From Deltaproteobacteria bacterium (GTDB lineage: Bacteria; Desulfobacterota; Desulfomonilia; UBA1062), in NCBI GenBank assembly GCA_018434685.1, contig JAHDOV010000004.1, forward strand, positions 348,808 to 412,807: a stretch of 64,000 nt of DNA. Reading direction: 5' to 3'. Each line of letters starts with the position of its first letter. Position 1 is the first letter of the stretch. The notes below the pieces were generated by a model, which saw only the letters and a list, made by a program, of their open reading frames with translations, made no database searches and was not told the origin of the DNA. Of the stretch, positions 4,314 to 64,000 are shown piece by piece. Position numbers and translations under genes: made by a program.

Positions 4314-5123
4314 TCATTGTCCCTGGCCTTTTCCGGGTTCCCTGCGGCGGTTCGGGTTTGCAGGCAGAAGGGATATGCGCGCACGGTGTCTGCGCGTCTG
4401 CTCACAGAGGTAGGATCGATAACGCCGGGCAAGGTCCTCCGGGGTGACCCGTCCGGCCATGACGTCCTGGAGCAGGGTTCGCTGGGTGATGACATGTTCA
4501 TGCACAGCGATGGTGTTGAAGAAGGCTGCGCTGAACATCACGCGAAACCGCCGCATCGAGTTGGCGAACAACCGCAGGATCGTGCTGCCGGCAAGCTTCA
4601 CGATCTCGTCCTGGATCTGCACCTCGATCCCTGCCAGTTCCTGGTTGCTTGCACCCTGGTTCAGCAGATCGAGCTGCCGTACAAAAAGCCGGTCGATGGC
4701 GGCAAGGTCTGAGGGTGTGGAGCGGATGAGTGCCCCCTTCACGATGGCAGGCATGACGTCAATCCAGTGATCGAGGAGCTCGAGATTGAAGGCGCTGCCG
4801 AGATCGATTTCCGGCATGTCGAAGACGGCATCGAGAAAATCAAGGCCGGCATGTTCCCGGTAGTCGAGAACAACGACGCCTGATCCCCGAACGGCACGGA
4901 CGATATTCCTGCCTGCCAGTTCACCCAGGGCCGATCTGAGAGACGTCCGGTCCACACCGAGCTGCGCCGCAAGGACCCGGTCCGGGGGGAGCCGGTCGCC
5001 TGGGTTGAGTTCCCCGAGGAAGATGCGGGCCATGAGGGTCCGGGCAATCCGCCTGGGAAGAGGCATCTCGCCTTGTGTTGGGGCGGTGCTCACAGAGGTG
5101 TCTTGGTGGATAGCTTTAACCAT
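4314..5123 (-). CDS. GntR/FadR-family transcriptional regulator (true start probably the internal ATG near 5066)
   Basis: wHTH RIARTLMARIFLGELNPGDRLPPDRVLAAQLGVDRTSLRSAL followed by an FCD-like helical domain. The ORF tail reads into intergenic sequence. Confidence 0.65.
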   Translation of the reverse strand: MVKAIHQDTSVSTAPTQGEMPLPRRIARTLMARIFLGELNPGDRLPPDRVLAAQLGVDRTSLRSALGELAGRNIVRAVRGSGVVVLDYREHAGLDFLDAVFDMPEIDLGSAFNLELLDHWIDVMPAIVKGALIRSTPSDLAAIDRLFVRQLDLLNQGASNQELAGIEVQIQDEIVKLAGSTILRLFANSMRRFRVMFSAAFFNTIAVHEHVITQRTLLQDVMAGRVTPEDLARRYRSYLCEQTRRHRARISLLPANPNRRREPGKGQGQ

Positions 5124-9381: not shown

Positions 9382-9810
9382 TCACCTGACCCTGAAGATG
9401 CGTCGTTCAAAGGCCAGCCTCCTGTTTGAAGGATAGAAATAATAGACAGCGTAGAGGCTCATCAAAACCGACCCCCCGAAGTACAGGTCCGGGAATTCGA
9501 ACCCATATGCCACCAGGCCCAGGTAGGGGGTGATCAATGCGATCCGGATCAGGTTGCGCTCGAAACGGATCAGTTCGGATGGTGTGGTGCTTGTCCTGAT
9601 GCGCAGCCGATAGGCAAAAACCGAGCGGTAAAAGACCGGTGCAGCAAGGGCAAAGAGCACGGATAACATGAAGATGACGGCTGCGAAAAGGGGCGGGTAC
9701 AGGAGGCCCTCCGGGGTGAAAGGTGATAGCTTGCAGGCGGAGATGAGGATGAACAGGATGATGGCCGGGATCAGGAGTAAAAAATAGGTCTTTCTCAGTG
9801 TGCCTGTCAT
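9382..9810 (-). CDS. small integral membrane protein (4 TM), hypothetical
   Basis: Internal start MTGTLRKTYFLLLIPAIILFILISA with four hydrophobic segments. Sits between cstA and the 98-aa gene on the same strand. Confidence 0.45.
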   Translation of the reverse strand: MTGTLRKTYFLLLIPAIILFILISACKLSPFTPEGLLYPPLFAAVIFMLSVLFALAAPVFYRSVFAYRLRIRTSTTPSELIRFERNLIRIALITPYLGLVAYGFEFPDLYFGGSVLMSLYAVYYFYPSNRRLAFERRIFRVR

Positions 9811-9878
9811 AGTCGATCCTTCCCTGAAAGCTCCGGAGGCGGAAGGACCCTGGTTGAAGGATCCTTCCGCCTGGTTTC

Positions 9879-11621
9879 TCAGATGGGTTCGGTAATATCC
9901 TCTGCAGAGAGGTTCCCATTGGTGCTGAAGAACTTGACCAGCCCTTCCACGGCGATCCACAGGGCGATAATCAGGATGATGACGTTGATCACCTGCAGGA
10001 GAACATTATTCTGCGTACCGAACTGGCCCTGGTTCAAGACGAGCGCCCAGATGGTCATGACGATCATGAAGACCGCAGGGGCCCCTGCAATGAGCCACTT
10101 CAGGCCGCCCTTGCTTTTGAGATACAGCGTAATGACAATGAGTGCCAGTCCCGCCAGCGTCTGATTGACGGCCCCGAAAAGGGGCCAGAGTTTCAAGGCA
10201 CCGTTTCCGCTGGCACCGGTTGCAAAGGCCAGGATTAACGCTGTTCCCACGGCAATTGCGGTGGCCACGTAGCGGTTGGTGAGAACATGGAGATGCAGGT
10301 CGCTGCAGAGCTCGGCAACCACATAGCGCTGGATGCGGGTGGCGGTATCAAGGGTGGTCCCGGCGAAAGACGCCACGAACACGCCCATGATCGTCAGCGC
10401 AATTCCCTTTGACAGGCCCAGGGCGGCAATCATATTGGCTGCGCCGTCCACGAAGGCACTGACCTTTGATCCAAGTCCTGCGGCTGCTGCCCAGGATGAG
10501 TAATGGGTGGTCCAGGCGGCCACGCCGGTGAGCACCTCTCCGCTCTTGGTGGTGTAGCCCATCCCGATGCCGGCGGAAACCGCTATGATGACCAGGGTGG
10601 CAAGGGTCCCTTCCAGCAGCATGGAACCATAGCCGACAAAGAGGGCATCCTGCTCGCTGCGAACCTGTTTGGCCGAGGTCCCGGAGGAGACCAGGGCGTG
10701 GAAGCCCGAGATGGCCCCGCAGGCGATGGTGATGAACAGGAACGGCCACATGGTCGGGGCCTGTGCCGGCGCAGACTGTATGGCAGGCGCAACGATTTCA
10801 AGCCCGCCGCTCATGGTGGAAACGATCACCCCCAGAATCAGGAGGGTCATGGCCACGACCAGCTGGTGTGAATTGATGAAATCCCGGGGCTGCAGCAGGG
10901 TGGTCACGGGCAGGGTCGAGGCAATAAAGGCATAGGTCAAAAGGATGATCGACCACACGCCGGTGGGCGGAATCCCGGCGATAGCGGGCATTTTCAGCGG
11001 CACATACGCGCCTATTACCACCGTGATGTACATGACGATGACGGCGATAATCGACCAGAGCATGACGTTGGCGCCTTTTTTATAGATGAGGTAGCCCAGG
11101 TAGACGGCAATGGGGATTTCCAGCCAGATAGGGATCACCGATTGTGGATACATGCTGAATATAATGGCGATGACCAGGCCGAATACGGCGATCACGATCC
11201 ACAGTTCCAGGAACACGATCAGGAAGAAAAAGATCTTGGTGCGGTTGTTGATGTATTTGGCAGTGTATTCCGAGATGGATTTTCCGGAATTGCGCATGGA
11301 GATAATGAGCGCGCCGAAATCATGGACAGCCCCCATGATGACACTGCCGAGGAATACCCAGATCAGTGCCGGGACCCATCCCCAGATGATGGCGATGGCC
11401 GGTCCGACAATCGGCCCTGTGCCGGCTATGGATGTGAAGTGGTGTCCGAAGATGACCTCTTTTTTTGTGGGGACATAATCGATGCCATCCTCAAATTCGT
11501 GGGCCGGGGTCTTGAATGAGGCCGAGAGTTTGAATATCCTGCTGCCGATAAACTCTCCGTAGAACTTATACATGATGATATAGCCGGCGAATGCCAAAAC
11601 CATGATCAGTAAAGCCTGCAT
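9879..11621 (-). CDS. cstA: carbon starvation protein A (peptide/pyruvate transporter family)
   Basis: Start MQALLIMVLAFAGYIIMYKFYGEF with AAGGAGG RBS. CstA N-terminal signature (HHFTSIAGTGPIVGPAIA) and multi-TM body. The listed ORF extends further upstream artefactually. Confidence 0.9.
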   Translation of the reverse strand: MQALLIMVLAFAGYIIMYKFYGEFIGSRIFKLSASFKTPAHEFEDGIDYVPTKKEVIFGHHFTSIAGTGPIVGPAIAIIWGWVPALIWVFLGSVIMGAVHDFGALIISMRNSGKSISEYTAKYINNRTKIFFFLIVFLELWIVIAVFGLVIAIIFSMYPQSVIPIWLEIPIAVYLGYLIYKKGANVMLWSIIAVIVMYITVVIGAYVPLKMPAIAGIPPTGVWSIILLTYAFIASTLPVTTLLQPRDFINSHQLVVAMTLLILGVIVSTMSGGLEIVAPAIQSAPAQAPTMWPFLFITIACGAISGFHALVSSGTSAKQVRSEQDALFVGYGSMLLEGTLATLVIIAVSAGIGMGYTTKSGEVLTGVAAWTTHYSSWAAAAGLGSKVSAFVDGAANMIAALGLSKGIALTIMGVFVASFAGTTLDTATRIQRYVVAELCSDLHLHVLTNRYVATAIAVGTALILAFATGASGNGALKLWPLFGAVNQTLAGLALIVITLYLKSKGGLKWLIAGAPAVFMIVMTIWALVLNQGQFGTQNNVLLQVINVIILIIALWIAVEGLVKFFSTNGNLSAEDITEPI

Positions 11622-13356: not shown

Positions 13357-13691
13357 GGTATGTTCTCCTGACTGGATTCTTGAACGTTCCATAGCACACC
13401 CGCAACGTCTGTGCGTAGTCTTTTTTCCGGGCTCCCTTTCCTGCGGGGGTTTTTCTCGATGCTCCTCATCCAAGGCTCTGTTCCTTAAGGGGATTGTCGT
13501 CATGCCGCAAGAATATGCAGCGGGAGACCGCCAGGTTTATCGCTCGGTCTTGAGCGCTGTCGATAGGTGCGCACCAGGGCAAGGTATCGCTTCCCTGGCC
13601 GGACCGGGGCATGCTAAAGCACTGGCTTGAGAATCGGGCACGGGGGTGCGTGGTCAGGTGCCTGATGCGGAAAACGAGGGGAGGATACAAC

Positions 13692-40945: not shown

Positions 40946-41611
40946 TCAGGGATAGATCCTCTCTCCGAAGATCATGGTGCCGATCCGCACCATGGTTGCC
41001 CCCTCTTCGACGGCGATGAGGTAGGAGTCGCTCATTCCCATGGACAGGTGTTTCATGTCGACATGGGGAATTCTCTCAGCCCTGATTCCGTCGAACAGGG
41101 CCTTGGTATTCCTGAAATAGGGCCTGAGGCCCGCGGGGTCGTCCAGGAACGGACCCATGGTCATCAAGCCCTCAATGGCGATGTGCGGCAGCAGGGAGAT
41201 CCTCTCGATGAGGGCCTTCACGTCCCCGGGCATGACGCCTGCCTTCTGCGGCTCTTGACCGCTGTTGACCTCGATGAGGATGGGCATGACCTTGCCGTGT
41301 TTTTCTGCCTGCTTGTCGATGATCTCGGCAAGTTCCACCGAGTCGACGGTCTCGATCATATCGAAGAGCGGGACGACCTGTTTCACCTTGTTTTTCTGTA
41401 TGTGGCCGATGAAGTGCCAGGTGGCCCTGCTGCCAATCTCCTCGATGACCTCCCTCGACTCCTGGAGGTAGTTCTCACCGACAGCGCTGATCCCGGCATC
41501 CAGCGCCTCGAGGATCTCGCCCGCGGTGCGGGTCTTGGCAGCAGCGACGACGAGGACTTCCTCCGGTATCGTGGAGAGAATCCTGCGGACATGGTCTGAG
41601 ATCGTACCCAT
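40946..41611 (-). CDS. yggS: YggS-family pyridoxal phosphate homeostasis protein
   Basis: 221 aa. LVVAAAKTRTAGEILEALDAGISAVGENYLQE and HFIGHIQKNK signatures. Confidence 0.85.
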   Translation of the reverse strand: MGTISDHVRRILSTIPEEVLVVAAAKTRTAGEILEALDAGISAVGENYLQESREVIEEIGSRATWHFIGHIQKNKVKQVVPLFDMIETVDSVELAEIIDKQAEKHGKVMPILIEVNSGQEPQKAGVMPGDVKALIERISLLPHIAIEGLMTMGPFLDDPAGLRPYFRNTKALFDGIRAERIPHVDMKHLSMGMSDSYLIAVEEGATMVRIGTMIFGERIYP

Positions 41612-53474: not shown

Positions 53475-54401
53475 ATGTTTATGATGATGAAAAGAGCATT
53501 TGTGATTTCCCTGTTTGCGGCAATTATCGTTGGTGTATCAGGAATCCCTCTGCATGCCGGACAGATAGTGACCGATGATGTGCGTGTGTGGGCCCGCGAG
53601 GCGTTGGCGCAGGAAAAAGGCCTTGAAGCAGAGCCTGCCGGCAACACGCTTGCGGTGCTCTACTTTCACAACAGGTCCGGCAAGGCCTTGCTGAATCCGC
53701 TTCAGAAAGGGCTCGCCTTCATGCTCATGACGGATCTTTCCCAGGTGGACGGGCTCGTTCTCGTGGAGCGGGTGAAGCTGCAGGCATTGACAGAGGAAAT
53801 GGATCTGGGGATCTCCGGACTGGTGGACCCTGAATCGGCGCCGAAGGTAGGGCGGGTGCTGGGTGCCAGATTCCTCGTCGGCGGGGATCTTCAGGGCACG
53901 GCAGCTGAACTGGGCATAGCCTCCGATGTGCTGGAGGTGCCTGGCCAGCGGGTCGCGGGCAGCCCTTCGAGCAAGGGAGATCTTCCCGGGATATTTGCAA
54001 TGGAAAAGGAGCTTCTTTTTGCGATCATCTCCATCCTGAAGATAGAGCTCTCTGAGCAGAAAAAGCTGGAACTGGAAAAACCGTTTACCACGCAGATCGA
54101 TGCACTGTTCAACCTGATGTATGCGATAGACAGCGCTGACCGGGGTGATTATCTCAAGGCCGAGGCATACTATACTGAGGCGCTCCGGAAGGACCCGGGG
54201 CTTAATGCCGCCCAGGACGGACTGCAGGAGCTCAAGGATCTGAATCTGGTCGGATCTCATGACCGGAGCAAGGCCATGGCGGAGTCGTTGGAGGAAAGGA
54301 CGTCACAGACAAGCCGGTTAACCGATGATTATATCTCACGGAGAAACAGAAACCCCGGCGATAATCTGAAAACCGCAGGACGGATACGGGTGCAGTGGTG
54401 A
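53475..54401 (+). CDS. secreted CsgG/LpoB-like domain protein with C-terminal TPR-like region
   Basis: Signal peptide. LAVLYFHNRS...LVERVKLQALTEEMDLGISGLVD pattern shared with the lipoprotein at 63135-63626. C-terminal helical YYTEALRKDPGLNAAQDGL. Confidence 0.5.
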   Translation: MFMMMKRAFVISLFAAIIVGVSGIPLHAGQIVTDDVRVWAREALAQEKGLEAEPAGNTLAVLYFHNRSGKALLNPLQKGLAFMLMTDLSQVDGLVLVERVKLQALTEEMDLGISGLVDPESAPKVGRVLGARFLVGGDLQGTAAELGIASDVLEVPGQRVAGSPSSKGDLPGIFAMEKELLFAIISILKIELSEQKKLELEKPFTTQIDALFNLMYAIDSADRGDYLKAEAYYTEALRKDPGLNAAQDGLQELKDLNLVGSHDRSKAMAESLEERTSQTSRLTDDYISRRNRNPGDNLKTAGRIRVQW

Positions 54402-57400
54402 AAAAAAACAATAAGGCCATTGGTGTACTGTATGCTGTTGTATGTGCAAGCCTGTTCCTGATGTGTTCATGCAGCGGCAGCTCCGGCAGTGCGTCAGAAA
54501 ACGAGGGAACAGGGTCGATCGTATTCTCCCTTCAACTGCCGGCCGAACCTTTTTCCTCAGCAGACGGCAAGGATGTGCAATACAAGGCCGCTTCCATAGA
54601 CTGCGACAGGCTGGGGATCGTGAGCGTCGAGGCCCAAGTCTACGACGAACATGAAGAGCTGATCGCACAGGGCGGTCCGTGGGACTGCAGCCTCGGTGAA
54701 GGGATCATATACGGCATAAAGGCTGGAAACAACAGGACCGTTCTCCTCTTTCTCAGGGATGAAAACCACATAGTGCGCTATACCGGAAACAAGTCGGAAA
54801 TCAGAGTCATTGCAGGGCAGACAACAGATATAGGGACCATCATCGTTATCGAGGGGGAGGAAGAGGACAACCATGCCCCTGTGCTCACTGGCGGCGGCGT
54901 AACCCCTGAGGCAGGAGTTGCACAAGAGACCTTCACCTACTCGGTACATTACCGGGATATAGATGGCCACGCTGCCTCCCAGAGATCCGTCTATATAGAC
55001 GGCGCACCCTATACCATGAGTCTGACCAGCGGTGCCGGGTATGACGGTACGTATACCTACCGGACCACGCTGCCTGTGGACGATCACACCTACTATTTCG
55101 TATTCAACGACGGCTACGGCGGCACCGTCAGGCTGCCCGGTTCCGAGATGTATGCCGGGCCGCGCGTGCGTGCGGTAAACAATGACCCGGTAGCCGGAGA
55201 CGACCAAGCGAGTGCGGTCCGAGGCGGCAGGGTGGCGGATGGCTTGCTCGACAATGATTATGACCCTGACGATGACGATCTCCTGGTCAATACGACACCG
55301 GTAACAGGTCCTGATCACGGCAATGTGGTACTCAACCAGGACGGCACCTTTATCTACACCCATGACGGCAGCGAGACAGCGAGCGACAGCTTCACCTATG
55401 AGGTACGTGACGGCTGGGGCGGTTCGGCAACTGCCGTGGTAAGCATTTCCGTGTCACTGGACCCGCAGGACAACCATGCCCCTGTGCTCACTGGCGGCGG
55501 CGTAACCCCTGAGGCAGGAGCTGCACAAGAGACCTTCACCTACTCGGTACATTACCGGGATATAGATGGCCACGCTGCCTCCCAGAGATCCGTGTATATA
55601 GACGGCGCACCCTATACCATGAGCCTGAGCAGCGGTGCCGGGTATGACGGTACATATACCTACCGGACCACGCTGCCTGTGGACGATCACTCCTACTATT
55701 TCGTATTCAACGACGGCTACGGCGGCACCGTCAGGCTGCCCGGTTCCGAGATGTATGCCGGACCGCGCGTGCGTGCGGTAAACAATGACCCGGTGGCCGG
55801 GGACGACGAAGCGAGTGCAGTCCGCGGCGGCAGGGTGGCGCATCGCGTGCTCGACAATGATTATGACCCTGACGATGACGATCTCCTGGTCAATACGACA
55901 CCGGTAACAGGTCCTGATCACGGCAACCTGGTGCTCAACCAGGACGGGACCTTTGTCTACACCCATGACGGCAGCGAGACAGCGAGCGACAGTTTCACCT
56001 ATGAGGTCGGTGACGGCTGGGGCGGCTCGGCCTTTGCAACGGTGAGCATAACGGTTTCTTTGGACCCGCAGGACAACCATGCCCCGGTGCTCACTGGCGG
56101 GATCGTATCTCCGGGCGCGGGCGAGGTAACAGAGTCGTTCACGTATACGGTTTACTACAGTGATGTTGACGGTCATGCAGCACAGGAGAAATTTCTCTAC
56201 ATAGACGGCACACGCTATGACATGGTGCTGCTCGATGGAACTCCCTATGCCGGGACCTATGCCTATGAGACAGACCTGCCGCTTGGTTCCCATGAATACT
56301 ACTTCACGTTCACAGACGGCTATGGCGGATCGGCCAGCCTGCCCGAGTCAGGGGCATACCAGGGGCCGTGTGTTGTGGCCGTGGCATATTTTGTAGCATC
56401 CTCACGGGGAAGCGATGATTATGTCGGGTCTATTGCGTATCCGTTTGCAACGATCGGGCATGCCATCGATGCGGTACAGGGTAGTGGAGACAGCCCGGTT
56501 ACCATCTTTATCGCTCAGGGCAGCTATGCCGAGAATCTCGTCCTGGATTCCTGGGAATCGCTTTCCGGCGGCTGGCTCGATGATTTCAGCCGGCAGTGGG
56601 ATTTTGCCGGCAACGGGATCACGCCGGCACCTGAATACGAGACCGTCATTGACGGCGGGCAGGTAGGGAGATGTATTACCGCAGTCTCGGCCGAAGGTGT
56701 CAGCCTCAGCGGTGTGACCCTTTTTAACGGCAATGCCGGCGATTATCAAAAAGGCGGCTCTGCACTCTATCTTGGTTCCTGCTCAGCTGATATCGACTTC
56801 TGCACCATAGTGAACAACACCACCGTATCGGACAATGATATCCACGGCGGGGCAGTGTATAACGATGAGAGCAGCCCCACATTCTCCCGGTGTCTGTTTG
56901 CCGATAATGTAGTAACCGGACCACATATCAAACATGGAGGCGCTCTATATAATTACCGATCGTCTCCGCGCATTGTCGGATGTATTTTCAGGGATAACCA
57001 CGCCGGGTGCAACATGGGTGCCGGCGGGGCCATCTATAACCTTGAAAGCGACGCCGAGATCGTAGACTCTGTCTTTGCCGGAAACACCACCGGCGGATGC
57101 TACAGCTACGGGGCGGGGATATATAATGAATCGAGCGATCCCTTAATTACGAACTGCCTGTTCGTGGGGAATACGGCAACGGGCAGTTGTATCGCACGAG
57201 GGGGCGCTGTGTATAATCAATTAAGCAGCCCGAACATGACCAACTGCAGCTTCTCGCTCAATTCGGCATCAAATGCAGACGGGAACAGCAGGGGCGGCGG
57301 CATATACAATGATGCAGCCTCTGCACCGGTGATCACCAACTCTATACTCTGGGGAGACACGGCGCGACTGGGCAAGGAAATCTTCAACGAGGACTCCTCG

Positions 57401-57646
57401 ATATGCCGGGTCACCTACTGCGACATCGATCAGGACCTGACCGAGAGCGATATTGTTCACCACAATATTCGTGAAGCCCCGCTCTTTGTCGATGCCTCAG
57501 GCGGTGATCTGCACCTCGATGGCGAGTCACCCTGCATCGATGCGGGTACGAATGATGCGCCGTGGCTTTTGGAAACGGATTTCGAGGGAGATCCTCGGAT
57601 TGTGAATGAACATATCGATATGGGTGCAGATGAATATGTCGATTGA
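54395..57646 (+). CDS. large surface (lipo)protein: tandem about 201-aa repeats plus C-terminal right-handed beta-helix with Pmp-like GGA[ILV] / FxxN repeats
   Basis: GTG start overlapping the upstream stop. N-terminal signal with Cys cluster LFLMCSCSG. Two near-identical 603-bp repeats plus a divergent third, each with DNHAPVLTGGGVTPEAG and a cadherin/Ig-like segment (NNDPVAGDD...TFTYEV). The C-terminus has repeated GGAVYN/GGAIYN/GGALYN and FADN/FRDN/FAGN/FVGN/FSLN motifs. Confidence 0.7.
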   Translation: MVKKNNKAIGVLYAVVCASLFLMCSCSGSSGSASENEGTGSIVFSLQLPAEPFSSADGKDVQYKAASIDCDRLGIVSVEAQVYDEHEELIAQGGPWDCSLGEGIIYGIKAGNNRTVLLFLRDENHIVRYTGNKSEIRVIAGQTTDIGTIIVIEGEEEDNHAPVLTGGGVTPEAGVAQETFTYSVHYRDIDGHAASQRSVYIDGAPYTMSLTSGAGYDGTYTYRTTLPVDDHTYYFVFNDGYGGTVRLPGSEMYAGPRVRAVNNDPVAGDDQASAVRGGRVADGLLDNDYDPDDDDLLVNTTPVTGPDHGNVVLNQDGTFIYTHDGSETASDSFTYEVRDGWGGSATAVVSISVSLDPQDNHAPVLTGGGVTPEAGAAQETFTYSVHYRDIDGHAASQRSVYIDGAPYTMSLSSGAGYDGTYTYRTTLPVDDHSYYFVFNDGYGGTVRLPGSEMYAGPRVRAVNNDPVAGDDEASAVRGGRVAHRVLDNDYDPDDDDLLVNTTPVTGPDHGNLVLNQDGTFVYTHDGSETASDSFTYEVGDGWGGSAFATVSITVSLDPQDNHAPVLTGGIVSPGAGEVTESFTYTVYYSDVDGHAAQEKFLYIDGTRYDMVLLDGTPYAGTYAYETDLPLGSHEYYFTFTDGYGGSASLPESGAYQGPCVVAVAYFVASSRGSDDYVGSIAYPFATIGHAIDAVQGSGDSPVTIFIAQGSYAENLVLDSWESLSGGWLDDFSRQWDFAGNGITPAPEYETVIDGGQVGRCITAVSAEGVSLSGVTLFNGNAGDYQKGGSALYLGSCSADIDFCTIVNNTTVSDNDIHGGAVYNDESSPTFSRCLFADNVVTGPHIKHGGALYNYRSSPRIVGCIFRDNHAGCNMGAGGAIYNLESDAEIVDSVFAGNTTGGCYSYGAGIYNESSDPLITNCLFVGNTATGSCIARGGAVYNQLSSPNMTNCSFSLNSASNADGNSRGGGIYNDAASAPVITNSILWGDTARLGKEIFNEDSSICRVTYCDIDQDLTESDIVHHNIREAPLFVDASGGDLHLDGESPCIDAGTNDAPWLLETDFEGDPRIVNEHIDMGADEYVD
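54866..56390 (+). repeat. 603-bp tandem repeat (2 near-identical copies plus 1 divergent partial copy) inside the large surface protein gene
   Basis: Copy 1 at 54866-55468 and copy 2 at 55469-56071 differ by only scattered SNPs. Copy 3 from 56072 is diverged. All in frame (201 aa). Confidence 0.85.
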
Positions 57647-57674
57647 AATGAACAGTGAAGGGAACTCATCCATT

Positions 57675-58826
57675 ATGAGCAGATACCAGGGCAGCCCGTG
57701 CAATGTATTAATCAGGCAGATAGCGTTAATCCTGTTTATCGTCTTTTCCGGCGCAGGAGTTGTCTGTGCCTCCGGGAATACCATGTCAAGCGGATTTCAC
57801 TATGACTGGTGGGATAGTGACGAGGGTGATAAAGGGATGCAGTTGTACCTCCCGATACAGGCCGCCTCAGAGTATCGAGGGGTTTCTTTCGAGGTGCTCA
57901 CTGCCTATGCATACACCCGGGTCGATCCTTCCGGCGGCTCGAAGCGGTCTTTGAGCGATTTTGTGGACACAAAGGTGAATTTCGCCTATCCCCTCGAGGG
58001 AAGATACGGCTGTGATATCGTCTTTGGGCTCGGGTTCAATCTGCCCACCGGTCACACGGACCTGAGCACCAGGGATCTGGTGCTTGTTGTCCCTCCTGAT
58101 CTCATGTCCATCAACTCCTTCGGGGAGGGGCTGAACATGAATCCCCGAGTCAGCATCGCCAGGCAGTGGGGAAAGCTCGTGGCAGGGATAGGCCTGGGAT
58201 ATGCCTGGCGCGGTGAATATGACTACAGTGACGGTGTCGAGGATTACGACCCGGGCGAGATATTCACCCTGACCGGTGAGGCTGCCTATGAGTTTTCTCC
58301 CCAGTGGTATGGTAAGGCCTACGGGGAATATGAATCCTTCAGCAAGGACACCGTCGATGGAGATGATTATTACCAGGAAGGCGATGTAACGCTCATGGGC
58401 CTCGGGCTGAGCTATGTCCAGCCTGCATGGGACCTGGGCTTGAGCCTGACCGGCATCTTCAGGGACAAGAGCAAAATACAGCAGGGCACCATCGTGCCCA
58501 CGGAAGCGAAAAACAGCCATGGCGATGAGTGGATAGCAGCAATTGTATACCGGTATTTTCAGGACAAGGACACCACGGTGAGCACGTCACTGGAATATCT
58601 TTCTTTGCAGGAAAACGACTATGATGCGAGCTCCCTGTACTACATCGGCAAGAGGCAGAAGATCACGCTCGGGTGCATGGTAAGCAAGATTTTGAAAAAA
58701 GATCTCGAGGCCTCGGCAGAGATAAAGGGATTCATCATGGATGATGAGAAGAACTGGTATCACCCGGGTGAGGACTATAGCTACAGGGGATTTTCGCTGG
58801 GGGCTTCGGTAACCAAGGGCTTTTAG
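57675..58826 (+). CDS. outer-membrane beta-barrel protein
   Basis: Signal peptide MSRYQGSPCNVLIRQIALILFIVFSGAGVVCASG. Aromatic-rich alternating strands. C-terminal ...GASVTKGF with terminal Phe. Confidence 0.6.
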   Translation: MSRYQGSPCNVLIRQIALILFIVFSGAGVVCASGNTMSSGFHYDWWDSDEGDKGMQLYLPIQAASEYRGVSFEVLTAYAYTRVDPSGGSKRSLSDFVDTKVNFAYPLEGRYGCDIVFGLGFNLPTGHTDLSTRDLVLVVPPDLMSINSFGEGLNMNPRVSIARQWGKLVAGIGLGYAWRGEYDYSDGVEDYDPGEIFTLTGEAAYEFSPQWYGKAYGEYESFSKDTVDGDDYYQEGDVTLMGLGLSYVQPAWDLGLSLTGIFRDKSKIQQGTIVPTEAKNSHGDEWIAAIVYRYFQDKDTTVSTSLEYLSLQENDYDASSLYYIGKRQKITLGCMVSKILKKDLEASAEIKGFIMDDEKNWYHPGEDYSYRGFSLGASVTKGF

Positions 58827-58894
58827 ATTTCGAAGTAATATTCGGATAGGTATTCTAACATTTTTTAGGATAACTACTTCCTAACTTATTCTTT

Positions 58895-59086
58895 TTTTAT
58901 GTTACTTTCTTTGCGTGCACAAGAGAAAGTAACCAAAGAAATGCACCCCGCGAAGCCGCCCTTCGGGTTCGTTCGCTCACTCGGGAAAAATCAGCTCGCA
59001 ATTAAACTCGCTCCATTTCATTACGCTCAGACAGAATTGCTCGTTTTTCTGATTTTTCCCTCCCTCGCTCACCGGCTTCAAGGGGA
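58895..59086 (+). repeat. about 190-bp structured repeat, left copy, inverted relative to 62711-62908
   Basis: About 85-90% identical to the reverse complement of 62711-62908. Contains a terminal 10-bp-stem hairpin (58901-58933), a CCC-UUCG-GGG hairpin and a GGGAAAAATCAG...CTGATTTTTCCC long stem. The listed ORF 58899-59129 is an artefact. Confidence 0.8.
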
Positions 59087-59295
59087 CCCGGGGTTCAGCG
59101 CTGAAATTCACTGTCTGGAAAAGAATTAGCTACCATCAATACCGGTGCACATAACCATGGGAGATATGGATCAGGTCATGTTGCTTAAAAGTAAATAGTC
59201 GTCGCAGATATATGCATTTTGTAACATGTCGATCACCGTGGCTGAAAGCCGTCCGTTGGTTTGCCTTGTTGGATTACAATTTGGCTGTCTTCACC

Positions 59296-61692
59296 TCATG
59301 TTTCAAAGCCTTCTTTATCTCTTTCCGATCTTTTGCTGGTAAGCTTTCTCCTGCGCTTTTTTCTCTCTGCGTCACTCCACTCAGACCACGAAGGGAGGTT
59401 AAGATAGAGTTGTAGAGTGGCGTCGGCAAGCAAATTGAGTTCTCTCAAATCATAATCGCGCTCACTATAGCGATCGTACAAACCACCTTTATCTTTCCAA
59501 GCCTCTCCGATACTATGGGAAAAAAGTTCCATGCCCGTCAACACAATAACATGGCTGCTCACTTTTCTATTCAATCTTTTCCTTCGTTCAGAAAGTGCCA
59601 GATTTCGTATCATCTTTACTTCTGATTCCTCTAATGCATTGTTGAGCGTTGCGAAGACCAGCGCAGCTCCAGGAAAAGCAACGGCCAAGTCCTTCATTCG
59701 GTCTATGTCCTTGCGTTCGAATTTATTGAAACTCTTACACTCTGCATGAACGATGTAGGTCCCCTTCTTGCGCCATGTAGATGGCTTGTATAGGCAGGTG
59801 AAATCTGCCTCTAAACGTTTCCCGTCTTTCTCCGCTATATAACTAAAAAGAGGAGTGACAAAACGATCAAAATCACCACCCAATAGCCTGAGAGTAAGCA
59901 GAACCGTAAAAGCTCCTTGGGCAACGGACCCTGCGAAGGGACCATGAGCCCGGTATGTCCATTGAATATTTTTAGGAGACTTCAGTGGTGGTGAGTAGTC
60001 AGAGAGACAGAAACGACAGCGTAGTTCATAGTCGAGCTCATTTAGTTGATACCAATTGTAGCGCGTACACACAGGACATTGAACTTTAGCCCCTAACCTC
60101 AAGGCGTTTACGGACAGCAATCCTTCCAGAAAGCGTTCAGCATCGTAGAATAGTCCGTCTGACTGGATAACTTGTTTAAGCTTCGCTACGACCGCCTGGT
60201 AAGGTTTTCCAGCTTCTTTCTCCAACTCCCCAAGCAACTCTACAACGCCATAGTGGGCGAGTTGCGAAATGCCGTAAACACCGCCGAGCTGCTTCAAAAG
60301 CTGTTTTGCGATTCTTCCAGGTCCAGATAAGGATACTTTCCAACCTCGTTCTCGAAACCAATGGGTCATGACTTTCTCAGATCGAGGTAGGTCGAGGAAT
60401 ATCAAATCCCTGTAATTGTGTGCTAAAAAAACAGGGCCAAATTTCGAAAATCGCCAATTGAAGTAACCTAGGTTTCCTATTGCTGAGGACAATTCTCGGC
60501 TTCCTTCAGGAAAAACCTCGGCTAGGGGCTCCTTTGATGTGAAAAATCGAAAGCTGAATTCGTTGGCAAATTTAGGTTTGCCTGAGTAATCTTGAAATAC
60601 GTCGATTTCCGGATCTTGCGACCGCAGCTCCAGTCTCTCCTCGCCCTCAGTGATTCTTCGCTCCTCCTCGTAGGCAAAGGGAAAAGCGATGTCCTCGCCG
60701 GGCACGTTGTCGCGCGCCCAGGCATCCCATAAGCGAGGATACCACCACTGAAGTAGGTACTGATCAGGTTTCGGGATATTTAGCGAGTGGCAAAAATCTT
60801 TGACCAAATCCTCTGAAAGCGAACGGGACCTCTGGACTGTGGTGTGGTAAAACATTTCAGGATTGTGCCTATAAGGCTGATAATTTTTTTCGATGAAGTT
60901 CAAGGCAAATGCCTTTACGCTGGCCATGTTCGCGACCTGGATGGGGATCGGAATCACATTGACGCCTGCAGCTCGCAGATTCCAGTAGTCGATTACGTCT
61001 TGGGCACTTGTTGCGTCGCAAACGAACAAAGTGGGGTTGCGAAGAGGTTTTTCCTGTAATGCCCAAGAGCTTAACCTTCGAGGAAATAGGTTAGGTGACT
61101 TCAGAATGTCAAGAAGCTTGCTCAGAGTTACTTGGCTTTTTGAAATGCCCGGATGGGTAAGGAAATGCTCGTCGATGATCTTCTGGGCTGTCTTCGGAAG
61201 CACGCCAAAGACACTTGCTAAGAAGAGACGGTAGGCTCGCGGTAATTCAAGAAAAATGACCTGGAGATCATCATTTCTCTTGTATTTCAGCTCTTTCTTG
61301 ATGAAATCATTCAGTAAATCGATCAACCCGATGCCGTATGTGGGGGTTACTGAGTTTTCTAAAGCTCCAATCAATTCATCAGCGTTAATGATGTCTCGAT
61401 TACCCACCTGAAACACACGATTTGCGCAACTACCAATGGGTACCACCAGATCGGGGTCAAACCCGGTTAAGTATCCTTCAACAATCTCCGAAGGAAGTGG
61501 AAGATGCCGAACACGATGAGCCTCCCATTTGACAGGAGTACGACGGTAAACCGGAATTATTGGATTATAACTTCCACCCCAAAGGAAAGTGCTGAGTTCG
61601 ATAGCGCGGAAAAGCCCCACACGATCTGCGGGATCAACCAGAAATCCCACTCTTAAGGGTCGTACTTTAATGTTTATGTTTCCCGAAGCCAC
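59296..61692 (-). CDS. large uncharacterised protein (798 aa) with zinc ribbon and putative PD-(D/E)xK nuclease-like C-terminal motif; candidate defence/mobile-element protein
   Basis: GTG start at 61690-61692. C-x2-C-x17-C-x2-C (CPVCTRYNWYQLNELDYELRCRFC). D...ExK candidate (EADFTCLYK...TYIVHAECKSF). Lower GC than the flanking genes. No similarity to any family I recognise. Confidence 0.6.
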   Translation of the reverse strand: MASGNINIKVRPLRVGFLVDPADRVGLFRAIELSTFLWGGSYNPIIPVYRRTPVKWEAHRVRHLPLPSEIVEGYLTGFDPDLVVPIGSCANRVFQVGNRDIINADELIGALENSVTPTYGIGLIDLLNDFIKKELKYKRNDDLQVIFLELPRAYRLFLASVFGVLPKTAQKIIDEHFLTHPGISKSQVTLSKLLDILKSPNLFPRRLSSWALQEKPLRNPTLFVCDATSAQDVIDYWNLRAAGVNVIPIPIQVANMASVKAFALNFIEKNYQPYRHNPEMFYHTTVQRSRSLSEDLVKDFCHSLNIPKPDQYLLQWWYPRLWDAWARDNVPGEDIAFPFAYEEERRITEGEERLELRSQDPEIDVFQDYSGKPKFANEFSFRFFTSKEPLAEVFPEGSRELSSAIGNLGYFNWRFSKFGPVFLAHNYRDLIFLDLPRSEKVMTHWFRERGWKVSLSGPGRIAKQLLKQLGGVYGISQLAHYGVVELLGELEKEAGKPYQAVVAKLKQVIQSDGLFYDAERFLEGLLSVNALRLGAKVQCPVCTRYNWYQLNELDYELRCRFCLSDYSPPLKSPKNIQWTYRAHGPFAGSVAQGAFTVLLTLRLLGGDFDRFVTPLFSYIAEKDGKRLEADFTCLYKPSTWRKKGTYIVHAECKSFNKFERKDIDRMKDLAVAFPGAALVFATLNNALEESEVKMIRNLALSERRKRLNRKVSSHVIVLTGMELFSHSIGEAWKDKGGLYDRYSERDYDLRELNLLADATLQLYLNLPSWSEWSDAERKKRRRKLTSKRSERDKEGFET

Positions 61693-61841
61693 ATTCTCTC
61701 ATCTTTCTGATTATTGAAATGCTCATAAAGCCAGGTGGTAATCCTGGACTAACATATTCAAGGACCCGACGTAGGCATAAGCAGCACAAGCGCATCCCGC
61801 GTTGATCTGCTTGCATTTGATCGGCCTTTTAAAAAACCCAT

Positions 61842-61880
61842 TCAGGCGGGGCGAGGGGGGAATCGAACCCCCCGCGCTTA
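61842..61880 (-). other. tRNA 3'-half-like fragment (T-arm GGGGG-TTCGATT-CCCCC plus acceptor 3' strand); no complete cloverleaf
   Basis: Minus-strand sequence gcgcGGGGGGTTCGATTCCCCCCCTCGCCCCgcc. No plausible 5' acceptor partner sits within tRNA distance (nearest is about 117 nt upstream). Confidence 0.4.
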
Positions 61881-62153
61881 CTCCCATATATAAAAGGTGA
61901 AAGTCACAGCAACTCATCCGTTCCCCTGTAGGGTTGTAGATCGCCCCAGCAGCGCTCCCCCCGCCACTACACAAATCAATTTGATAGTTGTTCCCATTTT
62001 GACCTCCATTCTCGTCTTAATCTCAATAGCTAAGCTCCCAACTATTTGGATTAATAACGATAGGCCCAATATGAACCCAACTAGGAACACATATGATTCG
62101 ATGTAACTGACACCTATACATGGGCATCCTTTACATAATTCAGATAAATAACT

Positions 62154-62393
62154 TTATTCTCTTGGGAGTAGATCTTTTGCATTCCGGGATGGAATAGGCA
62201 GCCCTTTTTCTTTCAGGTGATCAATAAGACGCTGCTCATAAGGCGGAGCCCAGCCATCCCAGTTACCCTCATAACAAGACATGCAGACAGAAATGTTATA
62301 ACTCTTAATGTATCTTCCATCATACACATGTGGGCCCATTTGAAATTGCCCATCACAAATAAAACATTTATCCATGAACTTCTTTTCAGACAT
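62154..62393 (-). CDS. small zinc-ribbon protein (79 aa) in a very AT-rich segment
   Basis: Internal start MSEKKFMDKCFICDG...CMSCYEG (two CxxC pairs) with GGAGGA RBS 5 nt upstream. Surrounding 61.98-62.70 kb is conspicuously AT-rich. Confidence 0.5.
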   Translation of the reverse strand: MSEKKFMDKCFICDGQFQMGPHVYDGRYIKSYNISVCMSCYEGNWDGWAPPYEQRLIDHLKEKGLPIPSRNAKDLLPRE

Positions 62394-62710
62394 GTGTCCT
62401 CCAATGCCTAAATGCAGAAAGATACTATGCAGATAAAAAGGTTGCATATGGGCTGTTAGCTAAGCAAATGCAGATATAAAACAACAAGCTCATAACACCT
62501 TTCAATAAATTCAATTAATCTTAATATTATATCATTATCTGCAAATTAATGTCCATATGTTTCCTCAACGGCATAAAGTAGAAGATTATAGATCCCGTGC
62601 CAATATGTTCCATAACCCAAGAATGCACATAATCATTAGAGACCTATTGCCTCTCTTGGTGATATGTTTTGAGAGATCATAGCTGAATAACTCAGCACCA
62701 GAACCAATTC

Positions 62711-62908
62711 CCCCTTGAAGCCGGCGAGGGAGTGCAGGAAAAATCCGAAAGACGAGCAATTTTGTCTGAGCGGAATGAAATGGAGCGAGTTTAATTGCGA
62801 GCGGATTTTTCCTGTGCGAGTGAGCGTACTCCGCTGGAAGCGGAGCGGCTTCGCGGGGGTGCATTTCTTTGGTTACTTTCTTTCGTGCAAGCAAAGAAAG
62901 TAACATAA
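62711..62908 (-). repeat. about 190-bp structured repeat, right copy (inverted)
   Basis: Reverse complement aligns with 58895-59086. The stems are maintained by compensatory changes (CAGGAAAAATCCG...CGGATTTTTCCTG; CTCCGC-ttcca-GCGGAG). The listed ORF 62586-62906 is an artefact. Confidence 0.8.
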
Positions 62909-63011
62909 ATACATATAGATAGAATCAAGCTATCGATTAAATAGGCCCTTTAGTAAAGTGACATAGGTAACACTCTAAAAAAATAGATTTGAAAGAACAC
63001 CCTCCTATGGG

Positions 63012-63134: not shown

Positions 63135-63626
63135 TCAGAACAACTCCAGTGCCGCACCCCTGGCCGCATCGAGCCAGGCCGATATCCCGGTCTCCGTTGT
63201 GGTCTTCTGCGCCGCACGCACGATCTTGCCGGTGCTGACATCCACGAGCCGCAGGTCGATGCGCATGGTCTCGCCGAGCACCTGAAAGGCACCGAACACC
63301 ATCTGCTGTGCCCCTGCCATCTTTCCGATTCGGAGCCTGGTGTTCTCGTCTGCAAGGTCCGACGATCCGAGGTTCAGCTCCTCGAGCACGAGGAGCAGTT
63401 GCTGGCGTTCCACCACCTGGTACGATCCTTTGTCACTGATCGTCTCCATCACCCCGGAGGTGAGGATCTGCCCCAGGGCCTCTCGGGAAGAGTCATCGTA
63501 ACTCAGATTCTCCAGATCCCAGACAGCGATGGTAGCCGGGCCGGTCTGCGTCGGGGTTGTTGCACACCCTGAAAACAGGATCAGGAAGACCAAGGAGGTC
63601 CAGAACAAAGCGCGCTTTGAGAGCAT
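63135..63626 (-). CDS. CsgG/LpoB-like lipoprotein
   Basis: Internal start MLSKRALFWTSLVFLILFSGC (lipobox) with AGGGATAAGGG RBS. IAVWDLENLS...VVERQQLLLVLEELNLGSSDL pattern like the 53475 gene. Confidence 0.6.
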   Translation of the reverse strand: MLSKRALFWTSLVFLILFSGCATTPTQTGPATIAVWDLENLSYDDSSREALGQILTSGVMETISDKGSYQVVERQQLLLVLEELNLGSSDLADENTRLRIGKMAGAQQMVFGAFQVLGETMRIDLRLVDVSTGKIVRAAQKTTTETGISAWLDAARGAALELF

Positions 63627-63630
63627 ACCC

Positions 63631-64000
63631 TTATCCCTCAGTGAGCGTCTTGTCGATCTTTTCCACTGCCTTGTCATCACGCTTGAGGGGCCGCTCCTGG
63701 TCGATTATCCTGCAGTAGGAAAGGTCCGGTTCAACGATTGTTACCTCGAGCCCGGCAATGTTCTTCGCTGCCTGCTGAAGTTTCTTTCCCTTGTATTCGA
63801 TGGGCTCCTGTTCTTCGATAACCCCGAATCTGCTGCCCATGACCACCCCCTGGTTTGATCCGAGGTTGATCATGACCTTGTCTCCGGTCACATTCACCAC
63901 ATAGGCCTGCAGGGGGTAGGTCGTCATGACCGTCGTGAGGATTTCCCTGTTGAGCTTGTGAAGATCTTTCTTCAGCGTGGCATCGGTGCTTAATTCCCGG
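63631..64000 (-). CDS. partial CDS (C-terminal part; gene continues beyond window end), hypothetical periplasmic protein
   Basis: Frame open from 64000 to the stop at 63631. The ORF-track start at 63927 is only the first in-window ATG. Ends 4 nt before the lipoprotein start. Confidence 0.5.
   Translation of the reverse strand, partial: RELSTDATLKKDLHKLNREILTTVMTTYPLQAYVVNVTGDKVMINLGSNQGVVMGSRFGVIEEQEPIEYKGKKLQQAAKNIAGLEVTIVEPDLSYCRIIDQERPLKRDDKAVEKIDKTLTEG

Follow-up and report, generated by a model that had tools for sequence, protein, structure and literature searches.

Within the window, i.e., the whole 64,000-nucleotide (64-kb) stretch of DNA that was analysed, a low-G+C block is bounded by two inverted copies of a structured repeat and lies between two host genes. 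The features of this region, with the evidence on which each was assigned, are as follows.

57606-58826, + strand (towards the left arm): left host gene from the ORF list, encoding an outer-membrane-like protein of 406 aa with homologues in Desulfobacterota MAGs, some of them with PF13557.
58894-59109, + strand (hairpin-first): left arm, a complete repeat unit (covariance-model match at 58894-59089, 225 bits; homology to the related locus L078; inverted-repeat partner).
59110-62689, all features on the - strand: cargo between the arms, about 3.6 kb (about 45% G+C, versus 55-60% outside).
59296-61692, - strand: cargo ORF of 798 aa (ORF list).
61848-61947, - strand: pseudo-tRNA in the cargo (weak match to the tRNA-Sec model, 22 bits).
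62154-62447, - strand: cysteine-rich cargo ORF of 97 aa (ORF list).
62555-62526, - strand: promoter-like site, TGGACA-18-TATAAT with an extended TG (promoter scan).
62690-62911, - strand (hairpin-first): right arm, a second complete unit (covariance-model match at 62707-62911, 222 bits).
63046-63020, - strand: terminator of the right host gene (terminator scan).
63135-63680, - strand (towards the right arm, outside it): right host gene, encoding a CsgG/LpoB-like lipoprotein (Pfam CsgG, 6e-16).

The two host genes converge, and each arm lies downstream of one of them and is co-oriented with it. The CsgG/LpoB-like gene was conserved in L078. Elsewhere in the window, an ORF of 1083 aa (54395-57646, + strand) contained blocks of approximately 200 aa that were repeated three times. 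Because its orthologue in L078 has Cadherin-like, Big_9, and beta-helix domains, this ORF probably encodes a surface adhesin; it is part of an operon-like group with CsgG-type genes.

Neither cargo ORF could be assigned to a known family. The 798-aa protein matched no Pfam, NCBIfam, or PADLOC family and no PDB sequence, and the 97-aa protein had no family match. An AlphaFold model of the 798-aa protein (pLDDT 77.8) gave no Foldseek match at E <= 0.001; its closest weak matches were Card1, SfsA, and MspJI, which have nuclease-type folds. The protein has a C-terminal D...ECK motif and a CxxC...CxxC ribbon, as well as more than 300 homologues (53-84% identity) in Desulfobacterota, Gammaproteobacteria, CPR, and an archaeal MAG. 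These homologues adjoin genes for AbiGi/Abi_C, Xre-MbcA/ParS toxin-antitoxin, PLD, and helicase proteins, and the 798-aa protein is a candidate for a new defence-type effector. The idea that the arms travel with this protein was rejected, as nine loci with six different homologues all lacked the arms. Pfam searches of both window cargo ORFs, of six cargo genes of L078, and of both ORFs of a third locus (L011) yielded no transposase or recombinase. In the pseudo-tRNA, the T-arm and the 3' acceptor half were perfect, the remainder was degenerate, and ARAGORN found nothing; an earlier tRNA-targeted integration may have left it behind. The promoter-like site, located upstream of the 97-aa ORF, was the best in the region.

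The preliminary description of this DNA had reported inverted repeats of about 190 bp with 85-90% identity at 58895-59086. The repeats themselves were confirmed, with the two arms being approximately 85-88% identical as reverse complements. The interval agreed with the left arm; however, it did not cover the right arm, and homology of the left arm to the left arm of L078 continued to 59109, approximately 25 nt beyond the helix P1 (see below), which places the end of the arm near 59109. An inverted-repeat search paired 58967-59085 with 62711-62829 (119 nt, 87% complementary) and 58896-58949 with 62856-62909 (54 nt, 94% complementary). In a MAFFT alignment of the left arm with the reverse-complemented right arm, mean column identity was 88%, while blastn between the arms gave 84.7% identity over 202 columns (E = 3e-60) and revealed no third copy in the 64-kb window. 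The right arm, with its hairpin at 62872-62904 and its P1 strand CCCCC at 62710-62714, was orthologous to L078 13486-13686, and its outer flank was homologous to that of L078 too.

Each unit consists, in this order, of a terminal hairpin, a CAAAGAAA linker, bases that pair with the hairpin loop to form a pseudoknot, and a closed domain of five helices with a near-invariant apical loop. In the left arm, read on the + strand, a T-run and TTTATG precede the hairpin, and the elements of the fold, all on the + strand, are as follows.

58901-58933: terminal hairpin H1 of 12 pairs, GTTACTTTCTTT / loop GCGTGCACA / AGAGAAAGTAAC (MFE fold).
58934-58946: linker CAAAGAAA (58934-58941), followed by X', TGCAC (58942-58946), the complement of GTGCA in the loop (58915-58919), with which it would close the pseudoknot.
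58946-59085: closed domain P1-P5 (folds of both arms and pair counts).
58946-58949 / 59082-59085: P1, CCCC / GGGG.
58952-58958 / 59073-59079: P2, GAAGCCG / CGGCTTC.
58959-58967: P3, a small variable hairpin.
58983-58994 / 59049-59060: P4, the long stem.
58998-59003 / 59035-59040: P5.
59004-59034: apical loop AAACTCGC-TCCATTTCATTAC-GCTCAGACAG, near-invariant and mostly unpaired by prediction.

The specific examples given in the preliminary description were borne out. Alignment and folds verified the long-stem replacement of GGGAAAAATCAG/CTGATTTTTCCC by CAGGAAAAATCCG/CGGATTTTTCCTG, the small hairpin CCC-TTC-GGG is indeed replaced by CTCCGC-TTCCA-GCGGAG, and the terminal hairpin GTTACTTTCTTT...AGAAAGTAAC opens both arms (12 pairs, with one G-T pair in the left arm). 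The pseudoknot, the occurrence of the end module in several phyla, and the bracketing of interchangeable cargo by the arms had escaped it.

Pairing between the hairpin loop and its downstream tail was complete (100%) in an alignment of six units, and three of the five pairs had changed on both sides. Among 30 family members, the mean best Watson-Crick run between loop and tail was 3.93, as compared to 2.80 ± 0.14 when tails were permuted among members (0 of 5000 permutations). The resulting H-type geometry, with a first stem of 12-13 bp, a second stem of 4-6 bp, and an A-rich linker of 8 nt, should be workable by the standard of frameshift pseudoknots. Across approximately 30 members the outer stem of H1 covaried; its inner stem TTTCTTTG/CAAAGAAA was constant across the members collected with search patterns that themselves contained it. 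In the apical loop, AAACTCGC ... GCTCA(A/G)ACAG was kept in all 11 units that were compared, and the middle was variable (0-15 nt). A 25-nt middle segment of this loop, (T)CGCTCCATTTCATT(A/C)CGCTCAGA, also occurs alone in unrelated AT-rich intergenic DNA (L010 1913-1939, L012 496-522, L077 7208-7234). Since the right arms of L078 and L011, as well as L088 and L092, lack exactly this insert, it could represent a small module in its own right.

Positions 59060-62739 of the window corresponded to a Logan contig (L004; run SRR13787007) that was identical to the cargo and broke off within each arm at mirror-image positions, just at the 3' strand of P4. The arms have no 31-mer in common, and such a break would need extra copies in the sample or poor coverage of the hairpins; as a sign of inversion or of extra copies it is suggestive only.

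Selection on the secondary structure, which the preliminary description had deduced from the two arms, was strongly supported by two alignments. In the first, six units were aligned with MAFFT and the structure was drawn by hand: 89% of cells were paired and 17 pairs had changed on both sides, as compared to 7.9 ± 1.9 in shuffled alignments (0 of 500) and 1-4 when partner columns were slid. In the second, 11 units, including both window arms, were fitted to a covariance model built from the six; this fitting favours the structure, although the margin was large. Here, 89.6% of cells were paired, 34 of the 49 pairs carried compensatory double changes (18.2 ± 2.4 when shuffled, 0 of 500; 6-16 when slid), and the covariation score was 0.454, against roughly 0.07-0.12. 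The best-supported helices were P1/P2 (97% paired, nine of 11 pairs covarying) and P4 (92% paired, 11 of 12 covarying). Both arms folded more stably than dinucleotide shuffles on the hairpin-first strand (z = -3.0 and -6.1); on the opposite strand, the corresponding values were -2.7 and -5.6.

Wobble statistics favoured neither strand. The helices were almost purely Watson-Crick, with eight G-T versus 11 A-C pairs and no G-U excess on either strand. The G-rich strand folded more stably, which may be an effect of composition, and C-A mismatches in the outer stem of H1 in several members would be G-U pairs on the opposite strand, a weak hint as to the strand.

The units are non-coding. The two ORFs placed over the arms (58899-59129 and 62586-62906), already regarded as artefacts in the preliminary description, both begin at the ATG of the conserved TTTATG and are open by chance in both arms. 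No reading frame was conserved on either strand, the best being open in four of the 11 units. The exact products of the two ORFs were absent from the protein collection, and a six-frame translation of both arms, concatenated, scored nothing against it.

That these two copies belong to a repeat family, as proposed earlier, was established by nine further units, complete or almost so, that exact-pattern scans and context look-ups recovered from other genomes and from metagenomes. Full units were found in a Bacteriovoracaceae MAG (L001), twice in a JGI contig (L011; one copy directly 3' of a tRNA gene, the other inverted at the contig end), twice in L078, and in four IMG/VR contigs (L065, L088, L092, L095).

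The 50-nt end module, comprising the hairpin and its pseudoknot, is distributed more widely: it was found in Fusobacteriota, Burkholderiaceae, a Bdellovibrionota MAG, and the Desulfobacterota-like window itself. In BLAST searches of the left arm against plasmids, the first 60 nt alone matched, at seven places in a plasmid of Ilyobacter polytropus and at two to four in plasmids of Burkholderia/Caballeronia. A gapped pattern scan of viral contigs yielded approximately 20 further members, and performed better than public scans with apical 20-mers, which gave few matches, or with an end-module 20-mer, which returned mostly low-complexity A/G runs. The core of the module consists of an outer stem of 4-6 nt, the inner stem TTTCTTTG/CAAAGAAA, a loop of 7-10 nt, a second CAAAGAAA, and a 4-6-nt complement of the loop; outer-stem covariants included GTTAC/GTAAC, GTGCC/GGCAC, CCCGC/GCGGG, and ATTAC/GTAAT, among others. 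Solitary units were common. No family match was present in E. coli genomes or GenBank phages, and the motif strings had no match in the literature. In a Caballeronia plasmid (L103 8500-8600), a nested GC-rich hairpin of approximately 40 nt was inserted in the loop of one end hairpin.

Many members lie 5-15 nt past the T-run of an intrinsic terminator (L081, L082, L087, L089, L093, L094), and one follows the CCA end of a tRNA (L011). In a rough count that took ORFs as predicted, the module was co-oriented with the nearest outside (upstream) gene in about 18 of 23 loci. No co-oriented gene lies upstream of the left arm of L078.

Inverted, tail-to-tail pairs with their hairpins facing outward enclosed four different contents across loci. 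One of these loci is L078, in which a flanking protein was 90% identical to that of the window and flanking DNA 82% identical. The same intergenic slot is occupied there by facing units at 9724-9919 (+) and 13486-13686 (-), which enclose 3.5 kb of cargo without similarity to the window cargo; among six scanned proteins of this cargo, one was a BrnT toxin, one gave weak sub-cutoff matches, and four gave none. Homology between the two loci stopped within approximately 25 nt of the inner arm ends. The right outer junction was orthologous, whereas the left junction was not, because L078 and a further locus (L101) carry a terminator and a small lipoprotein gene that are missing from the window. In L011, the pair encloses about 1.4 kb beside the tRNA gene, with no significant match for either ORF. 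In L078, the two arms are alike by only about 69%: L078 9724-9919, like L011 80-286, represents a distinct subtype (GTTCATTTCTTTG... hairpin, AAAAATTCGGG stem), and the partner arms resemble those of the window. Such a difference in subtype within one pair is as expected for independent units.

A pair of a different kind was present in IMG/VR contig 3300045051_001524, in which a full unit (2352-2541, +) and an end module (41288-41345, -) face outward around approximately 38.7 kb. The junctions read as those of a Mu-like element with TG...CA ends between two copies of GGGGTC (5-6 bp duplication). Removal of this element in silico restored a complete second unit and, thereby, a 537-nt tail-to-tail doublet with a spacer of approximately 110 nt between convergent host genes. 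Doublets without cargo thus exist, and this doublet indicates that the paired form is the native arrangement. In Burkholderiaceae, forms of approximately 500 nt carry the end module as a terminal inverted repeat. In contig 3300045051_001524 (L095 1170-1627 together with L036 10223-10296), the Mu-like prophage is located exactly between the hairpin-pseudoknot module and P1 of a unit, while in L041 (around 4640-4690) and L079 (around 245-270), prophage ends, read by analogy, lie within approximately 10 nt of this junction. These cases suggest that the module/P1 junction is a preferred Mu-like target, perhaps because the DNA there has a special structure or because the module is AT-rich within GC-rich DNA.

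Among known systems, the closest functional likeness is to REPINs, inverted doublets of REP sequences that fold as a single strand and depend on RAYT (PMC3337134, PMC3116915). Like these, the units are extragenic and non-coding, have a predicted fold as single-stranded DNA or RNA, occur as singlets and as inverted doublets with a variable spacer, and have no transposase of their own; moreover, the inverted copies in the window, L078, L011, and the reconstructed 537-nt doublet can each fold into one long hairpin. The family is nevertheless not filed as REPIN, because a REP measures about 20-40 nt and a REPIN about 90 nt, whereas the unit described here, with its pseudoknot and its five helices, measures about 200 nt, and only its 33-nt end hairpin is of REP size. 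A REPIN family typically numbers tens to hundreds of copies per genome and includes a single-copy RAYT (HUH/Y1) gene with repeats on its flanks; the present family was seen twice in the 64-kb window and at two to seven places per plasmid record, and no such gene was found beside any unit examined. The units further differ from REPINs in a spacer that can be as short as 110 nt or comprise several kb of genes and in an end module common to several phyla.

The arms resemble MITEs and mobile insertion cassettes, to which the preliminary description had compared them, in that terminal inverted repeats surround a non-autonomous interior, and in that gene-less forms of approximately 500 nt exist alongside forms with passenger genes. 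They differ in that their long repeats are under structural, covarying selection, unlike ordinary transposase-binding repeats, and in the lack of a target-site duplication: no direct repeat flanked the units of the window, L078, or L001, or the doublet, and the sole candidate, the palindromic TA of the conserved TTTATG, was absent in L011. The comparison with a non-autonomous, MITE-like repeat is supported by the existence of cargo-less inverted doublets of approximately 500 nt; transposase, target duplication, and empty site were not found. No related autonomous element with the same ends was seen among roughly 100 loci.

ERIC/IRU, BIMEs, Correia, and Bacillus bcr1 elements are genus-specific families of imperfect intergenic palindromes of 100-200 nt, many of which are transcribed and lie in 3' regions. 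No sequence kinship between any of these and the unit is known, and none of them is known to have been described with such a hairpin-pseudoknot module. They share with the unit its intergenic palindromic form, its 3' position, and its relation to insertion hot spots; REPs have likewise been described as targets of insertion sequences and as insertion hot spots (PMC1525189).

In contrast, the preliminary comparison with IS200/IS605 ends was not upheld. These elements also have subterminal hairpins that are read on single-stranded DNA, and they generate no target duplication. However, they insert 3' of a fixed tetra- or pentanucleotide, and both of their hairpins are on the same strand, so that their ends are not inverted repeats, whereas the end modules described here are true inverted copies, i.e., reverse complements. 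Neither a Y1 gene nor TnpA or TnpB was found in cargo. Resemblances of TTATGTTA to the XerD arm of dif and of ACGCTCAG and AAACTCAC to the Tn3 inverted repeat were set aside as probable chance. A retron msr/msd layout was set aside since there is no reverse transcriptase, and an intrinsic terminator since the T-run precedes the hairpin rather than following it.

We consider, with moderate confidence, that the locus is best explained as a REPIN/MITE-like doublet of structured extragenic repeats with foreign DNA in its spacer. Each arm would then be one non-coding copy of approximately 200 nt, the two copies would be arranged tail to tail as an inverted doublet whose hairpin modules point outward, as is native to the family and much as in a REPIN or a foldback MITE, and the 3.6-kb low-G+C cassette would be foreign DNA that had entered the spacer. 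Selection would preserve the single-strand fold, either of DNA at the replication fork or during mobilisation, or of a transcript. A protein would probably recognise the unit by its constant TTTCTTTG/CAAAGAAA...CAAAGAAA hairpin-pseudoknot module and its near-invariant apical loop, and the units may be copied by an enzyme encoded elsewhere, perhaps, by analogy with REPIN/RAYT and IS200/IS605, an HUH/tyrosine-type transposase. We infer mobility, rather than observe it, because transposase, target duplication, and empty site were all not found: relatives of the left flanking gene offered no clean empty site, and no cognate transposase was seen. Against the doublet interpretation also stand the presence of only two copies in the window itself and the normally lineage-specific distribution of REP/REPIN families, for which a near-identical 50-nt module across phyla would be unusual. 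The placement of modules after terminators and tRNA ends is explained at least equally well by a role at the RNA level or by insertion directed to terminators.

Such an RNA-level role is the most serious alternative, although we regard it as unlikely. Transcription of the unit together with the upstream gene, or directly after it, would yield a cis-acting or small structured RNA that serves as a 3'-end element for stability, insulation against read-through, or protein sequestration, and the inverted pair would arise from two convergent genes that each have one unit. The strong covariation, including an H-type pseudoknot of sterically workable geometry, and the near-invariant unpaired loops are consistent with an RNA, as are the co-orientation with the upstream gene in about 18 of 23 loci by the rough count, often directly past its terminator or tRNA, and the position of both window arms downstream of convergent host genes. 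However, little transcription is expected past a terminator, the promoter scan revealed no promoter-like site ahead of either arm, and the left arm of L078 has no co-oriented gene upstream. An Rfam search, which had been proposed as a check, found no family at its gathering score over the window and, for both arms, chance-level matches alone at E <= 10. The nearly complete Watson-Crick pairing, with a G-U excess on neither strand, further argues against an RNA, and the forms of approximately 500 nt with terminal inverted repeats resemble mobile DNA.

It is improbable that arms and cargo together make up a single non-autonomous transposon of the mobile-insertion-cassette type, with the arms as its terminal inverted repeats, that would move as one 4-kb piece with a transposase supplied in trans. 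The hairpins are at the outermost tips, the arms exactly bound the low-G+C block, and at three loci pairs surround 1.4-3.6 kb of cargo in which no mobility gene was found, all as such an element would have it. However, no target duplication was found, and the relative with 82% flank identity has an orthologous right junction and entirely different cargo, which argues against independent insertions of whole elements. Moreover, arms of one pair can be as little as approximately 69% alike, solitary units are common, and a cargo-less doublet exists.

A further view, to which we give little credence, is that the units are folded sites for landing or exchange and mark a slot in the chromosome for foreign DNA, with a putative, widely distributed enzyme capturing or swapping gene cassettes between facing units. 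This enzyme could recognise the constant hairpin-pseudoknot module and the apical loop, and the cassette system would be distinct from integrons and Xer/pdif. The transposable phages at the junction between module and domain, one of them reconstructed and two read by analogy, are in keeping with such sites.

Least probable is a cassette-exchange system in which the arms are folded recombination sites with an attC- or pdif-like function and a putative recombinase swaps the DNA between them. As in attC and pdif systems, folded or short sites bracket interchangeable accessory genes, including toxin-antitoxin genes, and, as in attC, structure outweighs sequence, with the stems being conserved in structure rather than in sequence. 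The same locus carries the same arms around unrelated cargo in two related genomes, homology is lost within about 25 nt of the inner arm ends, and the cargo is accessory (a BrnT toxin in L078; in the window, an orphan with homologues near abortive-infection and toxin-antitoxin genes). However, attC sites are direct repeats with R/L core boxes (GTTRRRY) that need IntI, whereas the units are inverted, GTTACTT does not fit GTTRRRY, and no integrase was found in scanned cargo; the core-box resemblance was set aside as probable chance. The 28-bp XerC/D signature of pdif and its enzyme are likewise missing, and none of the three loci has a recombinase. In addition, the comparison involves two genomes, between which the left junction is non-orthologous, so that ordinary deletion or insertion can explain the cargo swap.

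The family is undescribed and stands out for a structure of unusual size and support, for an end module found across phyla, and for the slot of interchangeable accessory genes that it delimits. If the fold is read by a protein, that protein would recognise a large and well-defined structure (pseudoknot, five helices, near-invariant loop) with strong covariation and no Rfam entry, and the end module common to distant phyla would offer a ready target for finding the partner enzyme. For annotation, the ORF calls over the units (58899-59129 and 62586-62906) should be dropped. The locus is a concrete example of a slot that is set off by paired structured repeats and filled with different accessory genes in two related genomes, while in another lineage a transposable prophage has inserted into one unit of such a doublet. 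This example is relevant to the placement and exchange of accessory-gene and defence-type islands.
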